A DNA stretch of 64,000 bases from the NCBI GenBank assembly GCA_964558645.1, contig CAZLEV010000014.1:8773-72772 (forward strand), written 5' to 3'. The notes beneath the pieces were generated by a model. That model saw nothing but the letters and a program-made list of their open reading frames with translations, was not told where the DNA came from and made no database searches. Each line of letters starts with the position of its first letter. Position 1 is the stretch's first letter. Positions 25,423 to 29,085 of this stretch are shown in pieces. A program made the position numbers and the translations under genes. The stretch comes from an uncultured archaeon. GTDB lineage: Archaea; Asgardarchaeota; Thorarchaeia; Thorarchaeales; Thorarchaeaceae.

Positions 25423-25806
25423 CTAATCCGGAGTTCGTCTCTTAAGCGTTCGAATGACCGACTTCAGATGCTTCTTCACAAAGGACCTGAACTTGGGGTC
25501 ATCCGTCAGGTAGATCATCGTTTGCGATTGGATGCTCTCGACACCACCTTCTACCTCAACGGCCTCGCCGAGCTCAATCAAATCAGTCTGAAATATGCCG
25601 TTGATAGCATGTGGGGAGAATCCTTCCCTCTTGAATGCGGGCATAATCTGCTCCTTCGTTGCAGCTCCCCCAAGCTTTAGTAACGAGAGCACAACTAACC
25701 AATGATGCCAGGCAAGTGTGTAGTTTTCAAGAAAATGCATTACATCGTCAAGCGATCGTGTCAATGTCTTTGCTCTCCTTCGCATCGAATAGTGAAACAA
25801 GTCCAC
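25423..25806 (-). CDS. Hypothetical protein, winged-helix-like
   Basis: LSLLKLGGAATKEQI...IYLTD pattern; GTG start directly follows the upstream TAG. Confidence 0.65.
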   Translation of the reverse strand: MDLFHYSMRRRAKTLTRSLDDVMHFLENYTLAWHHWLVVLSLLKLGGAATKEQIMPAFKREGFSPHAINGIFQTDLIELGEAVEVEGGVESIQSQTMIYLTDDPKFRSFVKKHLKSVIRTLKRRTPD

Positions 25807-27171
25807 CTAGCTATCGTTGTCATCAATCTCTGGTCTTTCGGCAGGCGGGATATCTTCATCTACCCTGCTTTGTTCCATCGTCTTCTCTAGCTCAACCTTT
25901 GCATCCTCTAGGACCTTCTCTTCAGCACCCGCGGCCTCTTGAGCCACTTGGGAGAGATTCCGTGGGCGGATACGTTCATCATCAATCTCCAAGAGACCCA
26001 CATCTATGAACTTCTGCAACTGTCGCTTTAGTAAGACAACTGGCACTCCAAGCGCTGATGAGAGGTGAGAGAGCTGAAACCAGTGTTTCTTGTCCGCAAC
26101 AACGAAGTAGGCCTTGAATCCTGGTTCGTCCTCAGCCACCTGATAGAGCATGTCCCAACGCGCCTCCAGCTCCGCAATCTGAATGGCAAGTCTCTCAGCC
26201 TCGGCCTCTGAAGAGTCCCGTTCTCCGCTGAGGACGGCGAGTTTCTCATCCAGCTCGTCTATCCGTGCTTCCATGTGTACCGCAGATCCACTGAGTTGTG
26301 AAACTTCATCACGAAGCTGTTCGATTGTCGAGTTTCTTTGTGAAATCGTCTCATTGGCCGCTGCGAGTTTCCCCTTGAGTTCAGAGATCTCTTGTGTCTT
26401 CTCTTCATAGTCTGACACAAGTTCCTCGGCCGAATCCAGTTTTTCGATGAGTCTTCGTTGTTCATCAATCTGGGACTTTGCCTGTTGCAGTTCTCCCTTC
26501 AGTGCAGATAAATCGGCATCACGAGACTCCAATGTAGCCTCAAGGTTCGATACGACTTGTTTGAGCTGAGCGATTTCCTCCTGACTCTCATTCAGCGACT
26601 TGTCCTTTGATGAGATTACGGTCTCGAGCTCAGTCACACGTGAGCGGAGTTGTCTAATATTGACTAGAGCGGCCTCAAGATCTTGCTCTCTCTCATTTAA
26701 CCGGGCATAGAGGCGTACCAGGCTTGACTGCAGACTTGCAGTAGACTGTCCGATTGTGCGTACTGTCCCTCTACTGGACTTGGTTACGATGTCTCTGACT
26801 TCCTCTCGAACCTCACTGATCGTGTCAAAGACTGGTGCTAGAACGGCCTCGCTCGATAGACCTGACTCCAGCTCATCTTTGGCGATAGATACCGCCCGTG
26901 TTGTGAATACACCTAGGCCTGCGGCCTTCAACTTCGATGATAGATTCTCTATGATTCCGTCGACCTGCTCATCGACTCCATCTTGTGTAGATTTCAGACT
27001 GTCCTCAACAGTAGACAGAAGGTCTTCCATCCGAATCTGTATTCTGTTGAATGTTTCATTTATGAGTCTGGTACTCGAGGTTTCATCTGTCCTCTCCTGA
27101 CCGGTGTTTCCCGAAGGCTCACGACGATTCGGGTCAAACTCAATTCCATCTGCGGACATGGCTTGGTCCAT
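25807..27171 (-). CDS. Long coiled-coil protein with C-terminal winged helix
   Basis: About 200 aa of heptad repeats (residues ~145-345), then LSHLSSALGVPVVLLKRQLQKFIDVGLLEI. Confidence 0.8.
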   Translation of the reverse strand: MDQAMSADGIEFDPNRREPSGNTGQERTDETSSTRLINETFNRIQIRMEDLLSTVEDSLKSTQDGVDEQVDGIIENLSSKLKAAGLGVFTTRAVSIAKDELESGLSSEAVLAPVFDTISEVREEVRDIVTKSSRGTVRTIGQSTASLQSSLVRLYARLNEREQDLEAALVNIRQLRSRVTELETVISSKDKSLNESQEEIAQLKQVVSNLEATLESRDADLSALKGELQQAKSQIDEQRRLIEKLDSAEELVSDYEEKTQEISELKGKLAAANETISQRNSTIEQLRDEVSQLSGSAVHMEARIDELDEKLAVLSGERDSSEAEAERLAIQIAELEARWDMLYQVAEDEPGFKAYFVVADKKHWFQLSHLSSALGVPVVLLKRQLQKFIDVGLLEIDDERIRPRNLSQVAQEAAGAEEKVLEDAKVELEKTMEQSRVDEDIPPAERPEIDDNDS

Positions 27172-27254
27172 CAGACTTCTTGTCTTGTCCTCAATCCCCG
27201 GTGTTCTGGTGTCATCTCCAGGTGTATCTTGCTCGTCGGGCAGCGTTCCTCACC

Positions 27255-27620
27255 TCAGTGAAGAATGCCGCGATACCCCATGGCTGTCAGTCTTGAGGAG
27301 GTCGAGTTCAGCTTCTCAGTCACTTGAGAAGCCTCCTGTATGCGAAGCATGAGCTGCTTCCTGAACTCGTTGGGTGTCAGTTCTCCACGATCGAGTTGCA
27401 TGGTGAGTTGACCACGCTCATCTTTGAGCTCGTCACGTCGCTTCTTCAGACGTTCGTATTCTGCAACGAGAGATGCCAACTCGCTCTGATCCTCAGGCGA
27501 GAGTTCCTCCACCGATTGTTTCATCTTAGAAGGAGGCTTACTAGTAAGGATCTCACGACCCTTAACCCTAGTGTCTCTCTTGTCTTCTTTCTTTCTTCTC
27601 CAACGATCGAATAGTCCCAT
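27255..27620 (-). CDS. Small helical protein with basic N-terminus and steadiness-box/SHOCT-like hairpin
   Basis: MGLFDRWRRKK; LDRGELTPNEFRKQL. Confidence 0.7.
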   Translation of the reverse strand: MGLFDRWRRKKEDKRDTRVKGREILTSKPPSKMKQSVEELSPEDQSELASLVAEYERLKKRRDELKDERGQLTMQLDRGELTPNEFRKQLMLRIQEASQVTEKLNSTSSRLTAMGYRGILH

Positions 27621-27635
27621 TTTCTGATCACCTGA

Positions 27636-28202
27636 TTAGTCTAGTTCTTCTTTAATGCTCTTGAGTTGACTCTCAAGGTCAAGTCGCATCTCTCTTGCGA
27701 CTCGTGCCTTTTCTTCATATTCGGTTGCACTGGCAGGATCATTGAGCCCCATCTCCAAAAACTCGTTCTCTCTCTCAAATAGACGTCCGATTTTTAGCTC
27801 TAACTCGGAGGCTTGTTTCTTGAGGTTCTCCCGACTTCTATCAGTAGCTTCCTCGTCGGCCGCTCGACTGGCCATCGACAATCCTTCAGCGGTGACTCCT
27901 TTGTCAGGCTCTGCAATCTCTACCTCGCCAGAGCCAGAGGAAACTCGAAGCTCTATTCCCTCATCTAGCTTCTTTTCAAGAGAGTCCATCCGCTCCATGA
28001 TTTGGAGCATAGTTGACTCCAAGCGCTTCATCACCACTGTCTGACGATTCACAGTCTTGAAAATCTCATCAGCAAATTCCTCGAAGTTCAGACCGTACTT
28101 GAAGCTATCAAGAACGTCCTTGATCCTCGTTATATCATCTATGAGTCTCTTGCGTTCCTTATCATCTACTAGATCTTGTGCGGATGGGTTCGGATAATCC
28201 AT
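27636..28202 (-). CDS. Coiled-coil hypothetical protein
   Basis: Two heptad-rich segments; ATG (MDYPNP) at 28202, 1 nt after the GTPase stop. Confidence 0.7.
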   Translation of the reverse strand: MDYPNPSAQDLVDDKERKRLIDDITRIKDVLDSFKYGLNFEEFADEIFKTVNRQTVVMKRLESTMLQIMERMDSLEKKLDEGIELRVSSGSGEVEIAEPDKGVTAEGLSMASRAADEEATDRSRENLKKQASELELKIGRLFERENEFLEMGLNDPASATEYEEKARVAREMRLDLESQLKSIKEELD

Positions 28203-28203
28203 A

Positions 28204-29085
28204 TCATTCCACCTCAATATCGTTGACAATCTTAAAGTCCAGAGTCTCAAAGGCTACCCCCTTCAGGAGTTTCAACCAGCGGTCTCGAAAATCTCGCCGG
28301 TTGGCCTGCATTCCATATGCAGGAACATCTAGGCGCTTGCCTACCTCTTCCGGTGATAACGCTCCCTTCAGGTCCTGCTTGTTAGCTATGGCTACTACAC
28401 GTGCGTAAGGCAGTTCTGACTTCAGAACGGGGTATGCAACCCGCTTTGTCCATTCCATGTTCTCTTTCGTCGAGTCAGTAACTACAACGACCATACTACC
28501 TGCACGGATGATTTTCCCCCATTCTTGGACGAAGCGGTCTTGACCTCCGAGATCAAACATACTGAACACGTAAGGATCGAAATCGGCCTTTAGAAGGGCC
28601 TTATCGCCAAAGAATGTTGGAACATAATCCTGAGGAGGACCCTGGGAGGGTAGCGTTGCCAGCTCGAGAAGGGTGGTCTTACCAGTACCACCATGCCCTG
28701 CAAGACACACCTTCACAGGTATGCGACCCACAATAGAACGGAAACCGACTTTGAAGGGTGAAAAATCGGTAGCTTTCCACTCGTCTGACTCCAAGACGTT
28801 CTCGAAAGCCGTCATGAACTTCGAAACCATGCTCATCATGGCTTCAGTTACTTTCTGCAACGAGGCCTGACGGTCCATCGTGACGATGAACTGCGTGTCA
28901 TGAGAGTTCATGTACACATATCGGAACCGCTCGATCTCCATGCTATCTATCTTCCATTCCTGGAGCTTCTGTGCAGAAGAAGAAACTAACATCATGACCG
29001 CCTCTGTGTTAAGGTCGTTGTTGGGAACAATCACATCGCTGAACAGTGTTTGTCCTTCCTTGAACACGTATATCTCACGAATCAT
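28204..29085 (-). CDS. Longin domain fused to an Arf-like small GTPase
   Basis: N-terminal ~120 aa of longin pattern (MIREIYVF..G..LF); G1 GHGGTGKT, G2 YVPT, G3 DLGGQ, G4 NKQD. Confidence 0.9.
   Translation of the reverse strand: MIREIYVFKEGQTLFSDVIVPNNDLNTEAVMMLVSSSAQKLQEWKIDSMEIERFRYVYMNSHDTQFIVTMDRQASLQKVTEAMMSMVSKFMTAFENVLESDEWKATDFSPFKVGFRSIVGRIPVKVCLAGHGGTGKTTLLELATLPSQGPPQDYVPTFFGDKALLKADFDPYVFSMFDLGGQDRFVQEWGKIIRAGSMVVVVTDSTKENMEWTKRVAYPVLKSELPYARVVAIANKQDLKGALSPEEVGKRLDVPAYGMQANRRDFRDRWLKLLKGVAFETLDFKIVNDIEVE

Follow-up and report, generated by a model that had tools for sequence, protein, structure and literature searches.

Asgard archaeal genomes each encode dozens of small GTPases and longin proteins, which according to the literature cannot be paired up since operons are rarely shared (PMC10933270). 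Fusions of a longin domain to a GTPase have already been reported in these archaea (Tran 2024, PMC10933270; Zhu 2025, PMC11914678), and an "NPRL2-like" family was found in most Thor metagenome-assembled genomes (MAGs) (Liu 2020, bioRxiv 10.1101/2020.10.19.343400). The GTPases of MK-D1 generally do not lie in operons with regulators (Tran, PMC10933270), and the three papers give no operon for these proteins; the conserved operon described by Liu consists of Roadblock, a Rab-like GTPase and DENN. This study examines a seven-gene module in a 64,000-nucleotide (nt) stretch of DNA, referred to here as the window, from an uncultured archaeon of the family Thorarchaeaceae (assembly GCA_964558645.1, contig CAZLEV010000014.1). 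The genes, all on the minus strand, are designated from 5' to 3' as U, a longin protein with two winged helices; S, a surface protein; A, an Arf-like small GTPase with a longin-like N-terminal domain; B and C, which carry helical hairpins; D, a long coiled coil; and E, a stand-alone winged helix. Known singly are the parts, including longin-GTPase fusions and NPRL2-like Asgard proteins. As a whole, the module is real and conserved, an apparently undescribed variant of the prokaryotic switch that combines a membrane protein, a longin or roadblock protein and a small GTPase, and no publication on this gene cluster was found in the literature searched, with subscription journals largely outside its coverage. 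The original prediction, made from the sequence alone, had drawn the unit as five co-oriented genes, A to E (window 25423-29085), forming one GTPase-switched complex for membrane shaping, tethering or division. All five minus-strand open reading frames are present, and the two upstream genes, U and S, belong with them.

To define the range of the module, 261 Asgard genomes were surveyed. The U family occurs in 186 of them, D-type winged helices in 129, C in 43, close orthologs of A in 42 and E, restricted to Thorarchaeales, in 39. In 24 Thorarchaeaceae genomes a single contig carries the complete order A-B-C-D-E, preceded by U-S in every case where that contig extends far enough. In the sister family, A-B-C-D-X-E lies behind threonyl-tRNA synthetase and S-U on a separate contig. 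The insert X (L048:13471-14952) encodes 493 amino acids (aa) with a longin-like start, a middle region that resembles an adaptin appendage by eye and a helical end, and has no Pfam match. Atabeyarchaeum deiterrae and one relative carry S-U-A-C-D' (2 genomes), where D' is a short relative of D placed after C. U-A-C is contiguous in Jordarchaeales and in family f19 (5 of 5 examined in each), with flanks unlike those of Thor, and families f8 and f15 combine U-A with a B-like gene and have a longin-winged-helix gene and D' nearby or in a second operon, f15 also possessing C and S. C is the constant neighbor of U-A in four families. Sequence and gene-order conservation of the module lie far above chance. 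The conserved gene neighborhood that the original prediction called for is found within Thorarchaeaceae, and U-A-C is kept among different flanks elsewhere. As a separate observation, the longin-winged-helix genes beside D' in f8 and f15 (L088:5042-5953 and L162:1355-2194) gave weak DUF742 matches (E 6e-6 and 3e-4) below the cut-off; DUF742 is a domain that we take to be that of CvnC.

Ten Thor loci are reduced to a clean U-A-C-E with short junctions, the non-adjacent S, B and D all being missing, and the gene tree distributes them over at least 3 separate clades. In a tree of the U and A genes that takes the sister family as its root, the full loci branch basally, and loci without S and B require 4 changes, at least 3 of which are forced by strong branches; a single origin, imposed as a constrained clade, was rejected (p-AU 2e-5, approximately unbiased test). 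Within Thorarchaeaceae, B is lost whenever the locus has lost S, and one locus without S and B still has D and groups as the sister of a reduced clade, which suggests that S and B were lost before D. Genome-wide searches of the reduced genomes examined recovered the positive controls and no orthologs of B or D, absence from a MAG being read only as "not found". Repeated co-loss would accordingly divide the module into a core, U-A-C-E, and a surface arm, S-B-D. The single fixed five-gene complex of the original prediction is not sustained: A, C and E persist at loci where B and D have been shed time and again, and A has its closest constant partner in U, a gene outside those five.

Further decay leaves C alone in two genomes (G171 and G026) and degraded in a third (G033). 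A clean thiolase-DUF35 junction marks the site in G007, where the module is gone, and an unrelated giant surface protein occupies it in three genomes that are 95-97% complete (G005, G031 and G164); several Thorarchaeota genomes of 93-97% completeness are without the module. Its loss or replacement as a block supports the earlier view of these genes as one unit, and from gene content the module is judged to be a discrete, dispensable block within a region of acyl-CoA metabolism. At one further locus (L049, G023) S is fragmented, A contains a stop and B-E are intact, so that the module is apparently decaying or misassembled. The genome studied here also holds a paralogous trio (L054, G000:C1:7111-9830), composed of a U-like protein of 380 aa (U'), a longin-GTPase of 283 aa (A') and a coiled-coil/hairpin protein of 207 aa that matches CdvA weakly; the trio is also present in G157, a genome without the module.

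The GTPase A contains G1 (GHGGTGKT, 130-137), T157 of switch I, G3 (DLGGQ, 178-182) and G4 (NKQD, 235-238), and the key residues of these motifs are invariant across 37 aligned homologs, in full agreement with the intact G1-G4 originally read from the sequence. It matches Pfam Arf at E 6e-13, its closest solved relatives are Arf1 (E 2e-20) and the Asgard Arf-related GTPase 8OUN (E 3e-19), with similar scores, and its identity across Thorarchaeota is 74-93%. In all 37 aligned homologs, a domain of about 120 residues replaces the N-terminal amphipathic helix of Arf; the alignment pattern and the literature indicate that it is longin-like. Held against a strict definition of the Arf family, A has the Arf-type G motifs and lacks the amphipathic helix coupled to the interswitch toggle. 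A belongs to the longin-GTPase fusions already described from Asgard archaea.

The AlphaFold2 model of U has a predicted local distance difference test score (pLDDT) of 81 and comprises a longin domain followed by two winged helices. The best structural matches are NPRL2-type chains of GATOR1/SEA (Z 11.7 and root-mean-square deviation 2.5 over 125 aligned residues, longin only; Foldseek E 9e-4). From the model and the fold searches, U has the longin fold and NPRL2-like downstream winged helices expected of longin subunits of GTPase-activating proteins (GAPs) such as NPRL2, FLCN and SMCR8, and it is probably the NPRL2-like family of Liu. Its first longin hairpin carries a WDxxLGP motif in which W, D and G are invariant in 37 orthologs and P is present only in the 25 Thor rows. 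The spacing is that of W33-D34/G38-P39 in C9orf72, residues of an Arf-GAP longin dimer (PMC12290439).

The surface protein S possesses a signal-like N-terminus, immunoglobulin (Ig)/prealbumin-like repeats, one transmembrane segment near residue 2089 and a cytoplasmic tail of about 250 aa. This tail has an acidic tract as well as a juxtamembrane motif that is basic and conserved. Across Asgard families, an S-type gene frequently lies directly against a U gene, and Loki-type genomes have S-U pairs in tandem; one basic juxtamembrane motif is common to the tails of these U-adjacent proteins. The giant surface protein that replaces the module in three genomes has a tail without this motif. Tandem duplications were also observed, namely U-S-U-S-A in G021 (L036/L094) and two consecutive S genes in G012 (L033), G020 (L040) and probably G029 (L109).

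Among the smaller proteins, B combines an acidic linker with a C-terminal helical hairpin, and C combines a conserved MG-hydrophobic-basic N-terminus, a putative membrane anchor, with a variable linker and a G-x-L helical hairpin. E is modeled as a winged helix at pLDDT 87 and scores highest, with Z 8.4, against forkhead/ORC winged helices (root-mean-square deviation 2.7 over 79 residues); ORC, forkhead and MarR lead its fold list, which identifies no specific relative. Searches of Pfam, NCBIfam, PDB sequences and the ESM Atlas returned no family for B, C or E, an absence that does not exclude one, and only generic coiled-coil and winged-helix matches for D; Mod_r matched 2 of 24 C members at E 0.004. 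An assignment of D to SMC/Rad50 was rejected, the match covering the coiled coil alone (58 bits against a cut-off of 729), with no P-loop or ATPase head, and a link by duplication between the winged helices of D and E found no support, at an hhalign probability of 1%. Membership of the partners in unrelated families, named beforehand as a possible refutation, was thus not observed, there being no SMC protein and no recognizable transcription factor.

Hairpins of C, B, the B-like genes and the C-termini of Loki-type longin-GTPases gave best hhalign pairs of 46-67%, compared with at most 36% for an unrelated coiled coil; C against B scored 1%. Loki-type and f15 longin-GTPases at several loci (L124-L131, L138, L139, L142, L157 and L161) have a long linker, in many cases rich in proline, and a G-x-I hairpin fused at the C-terminus. 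This hairpin resembles C and the B-like genes, and the "Rosetta-stone" reading of the fusion is only a lead. A search for shorter relatives of D found only fragments cut by contig ends. D-like coiled-coil-winged-helix genes were also seen adjoining a longin-only U fragment in family f24 (L154:6492-8370) and directly behind a longin-GTPase-hairpin fusion in G177 (L157:6437-10398).

From the genes, the folds of U and E, the gene order and the co-loss, we infer a dispensable, membrane-associated small-GTPase switch built on the U-A longin pair and serving the surface protein through B and D, a proposal whose chances we regard as evenly balanced. The longin of U would pair with the one fused to A, and the resulting longin-dimer platform would hold the GTPase domain and regulate it in cis; C would supply in trans the membrane-binding N-terminus missing from A. 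E may act as a protein-binding winged-helix regulator or effector. S would span the membrane and dock the core by its conserved basic tail, with U as the probable point of contact, and the core-S complexes would be spaced, clustered or positioned by the coiled coils B and D. The output would likely be the GTP-dependent placement, clustering or release of surface adhesin or receptor complexes, following a logic akin to that of Myxococcus MglA/MglB adhesion sites or actinobacterial conservons.

Prediction of the complex of A with U, C and E lends this proposal weak support, with a score of 0.54 (runs 0.59, 0.00 and 0.54) against 0.00 for the best control; contact agreement between runs was at least 0% and partner pLDDT at least 73. 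The score mark is reached by 58 of 80 solved complexes and 2 of 110 mismatched pairs, of which 7 of the 80 and both mismatches lie at or below 0.60. The control with U replaced, at 0.00, carries no information on A binding C or E. Solved structures include many longin dimers, so the passing score may reflect likeness, and the prediction would shift the odds only slightly.

Several points weigh against the proposed switch. GAP activity is unsupported because neither U nor the longin of A has a canonical arginine finger: in U, the beta4-beta5 loop bears an Arg in 1 of 37 orthologs and is shorter outside Thor, and the equivalent loop of A has none. The N-terminal hydrophobic moment of C (about 0.45) is no higher than that of same-residue shuffles in Thor. 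Within Thorarchaeaceae, synteny extends equally to the metabolic flanks (carboxylase, thiolase, DUF35 and acyl-CoA dehydrogenase), which leaves the comparisons between families and the losses as the only data that count. The losses were counted on a gene tree that recombination could distort, and kin are not independent. S can be apart from A, as in the sister family, and is not adjacent at the U-A-C loci of f19 and Jordarchaeales; since B is also missing from the S-bearing Atabeyarchaeia locus, the S-B link is lineage-specific. Finally, the core persists without its S, with A still 74-80% identical, and must therefore draw its input from elsewhere or rely on paralogs of S.

A broader, Asgard-wide version of the switch would be an adhesion-complex-like transmembrane link, in which an NPRL2/C9orf72-like longin reads the single tail motif common to otherwise variable surface proteins and docks the longin-Arf-like GTPase together with coiled-coil scaffolds. 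We consider this unlikely, at roughly one chance among five. If true, it would represent a prokaryotic forerunner of longin GAP platforms and of cargo-tail adaptors, and it could organize the surface densities and protrusions of cultured Lokiarchaeia.

Equally unlikely in our estimate is a conservon-like route from receptor to gene, in which contact or a ligand would be sensed by S and relayed by U and A, and transcription would change on DNA binding by the winged helices of one or more of U, D and E. The module has four winged helices; for the second of U, 22 of 37 members give an ArsR/HTH_20 match, and its recognition helix is basic, and the fold neighbors of E include MarR, ArsR and forkhead domains. 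However, that basic helix is the least conserved element of U (38% identity), whereas the neutral-to-acidic wing of the first winged helix is well conserved, and E carries a net negative charge on its recognition helix (-2.4) and its wing (-3.6), its C-terminal helix being basic. NPRL2-type winged helices are protein scaffolds, which further counts against DNA binding. Conservons offer a precedent, being sets of membrane sensor, roadblock protein and small GTPase that control gene expression (PMC13343842), but no kinase or phosphorelay gene is present in the module.

Quite improbable is the model of the original prediction, an Arf/golgin/ESCRT-II-like machine that would bend, tether or cut membranes by means of coiled-coil tethers and winged-helix adaptors brought in by the GTPase. 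The nearest solved relatives of A are consistent with such a machine, as is the start of C, since MG-hydrophobic-basic segments of this type resemble the N-termini of PspA, ESCRT-III and Arf; B-like neighbors match CdvA weakly (E 1e-3 to 2e-4, below the cut-off), and the sister family carries its appendage-like longin gene between D and E. Family searches with B, C, D and E nevertheless returned no ESCRT, SNARE or coat family at the cut-off, Vps22/25/36, Snf7, Vps23/37 and CdvA included, nor did the fold searches with E give an ESCRT match, and A is devoid of the amphipathic helix that defines Arfs. The two Snf7 (ESCRT-III) genes of the genome lie on contigs C18 and C2 and the module on C14. 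Absence of the module from 93-97% complete genomes argues against a core role in division, although the paralogous U'-A'-coiled-coil trio remains. The remodeling, tethering or division role proposed at the outset is therefore not upheld. Very improbable is a set of loosely linked units (S-U; A-C-E; B and D) held by co-regulation and general Thorarchaeota synteny with no common physical complex: the equally syntenic flanks, the spacer between S and A and the different recombination of parts in other Asgard families are set against U-A-C adjacency in four families with different flanks, co-loss of the same non-adjacent genes at least 3 times and deletion or replacement as a block.

Table 1 Position and layout of the seven genes and the S-A spacer in the window.
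Feature	Position	Strand	Description
U (longin + two winged helices)	36510..37676	-	388 aa, NPRL2-like layout, AlphaFold2 model and fold searches
S (surface protein)	29424..36509	-	2361 aa; 0 nt from U
S-A spacer	29086..29423	-	338 nt; GC hairpin 29377-29400, then minus-strand pyrimidine run
A (longin-like domain + Arf-like small GTPase)	28204..29085	-	293 aa
B (helical/coiled-coil)	27636..28202	-	188 aa
C (hairpin protein)	27255..27620	-	121 aa
D (long coiled coil + C-terminal winged helix)	25807..27243	-	about 478 aa from CTG 27243; 454 aa from ATG 27171
E (stand-alone winged helix)	25423..25764	-	about 113 aa from TTG 25764; 127 aa from GTG 25806

With the starts first assigned, the gaps are 1 nt (A/B), 15 nt (B/C), 83 nt (C/D) and 0 nt (D/E). 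E almost certainly begins at TTG 25764 rather than GTG 25806, because most homologs begin there and an AGGAGA site precedes the TTG; the D/E junction is therefore about 42 nt. The frame of D is open and homologous for 24 further upstream codons, to CTG 27243, which is preceded by GAGGTGA and is probably the true start in place of ATG 27171. The C/D gap thus becomes 11 nt, and in most relatives it is 10-13 nt. Of the two abutting junctions originally described, A/B stands and D/E does not; D and E keep the winged-helix architectures assigned to them, with revised lengths. The true start of U is probably GTG 37673. The hairpin and pyrimidine run of the spacer are a possible terminator, and an internal promoter in the spacer is likewise possible; in a scan for bacterial promoters and terminators, terminator-like sites were no commoner than in shuffled sequence, that is, at chance level.

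The module separates the thiolase from its usual DUF35/ChsH2 partner (window 40544-41710 and 25034-25375). Two more genes lie between the thiolase and U, one at 38000-38947 and a radical SAM gene at 39506-40462. Three genes downstream of E, a 191-aa protein (23110-23685) with a weak Fuz/Mon1 longin match and a conserved Cys/His-rich motif is syntenic across Thorarchaeota. Elsewhere in the window (45192-53167), a 719-aa TnpB-like gene stands head-to-head with an 1882-aa gene, and the start of contig C1 (L054:3-806) holds a TnpB end near-identical to that of the 719-aa gene.

The module provides a matched set. U-A-C-E, at <950 residues, is its natural minimal form, and the repeated losses mark off S-B-D as a surface arm that can be separated from it. 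The module allows one to ask directly whether longin-dimer control of an Arf-like GTPase, coupled to a transmembrane tail, predates eukaryotes.

Among described systems, the longin-dimer regulators GATOR1 NPRL2-NPRL3 acting on Rag, C9orf72-SMCR8 acting on Arf1, and FLCN-FNIP (PMC12290439) share with U the layout of a longin and tandem winged helices; NPRL2/Npr2 chains are its best structural matches, the WD...GP hairpin is C9orf72-like, and the neighboring GTPase is Arf-like. The module differs in having no conserved arginine finger, in retaining the GP proline in Thor only, in fusing the second longin to the GTPase, in having no DEPDC5, Ragulator or TOR, and in its genetic coupling to a surface protein. 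Compared with the Roadblock-GTPase-DENN operon of Liu, it has no roadblock gene, and in U the longin is followed by winged helices rather than a DENN core. A resembles the Arf family and Asgard ArfR (Vargova, bioRxiv 10.1101/2024.02.28.582541) in DLGGQ, the switch II Trp, NKQD and its Arf PDB matches, and differs in its longin domain. Winged helices, helical hairpins and a basic-hydrophobic N-terminus are common to the module and to ESCRT-I/II/III and CdvA/CdvB, but no family-level match was found, the Snf7 genes lie elsewhere, and no Vps4 or ubiquitin genes are nearby. Conservons (CvnA-D) and Myxococcus MglA/MglB share its operon logic, in which a membrane protein, a roadblock or longin regulator, a small GTPase and small accessory proteins are combined. 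No CvnA histidine-kinase-like domain was found in U, S or A-E, and the module uses a longin rather than a roadblock protein, an Arf-like rather than an MglA-like GTPase, a giant Ig-repeat surface protein and long coiled coils.

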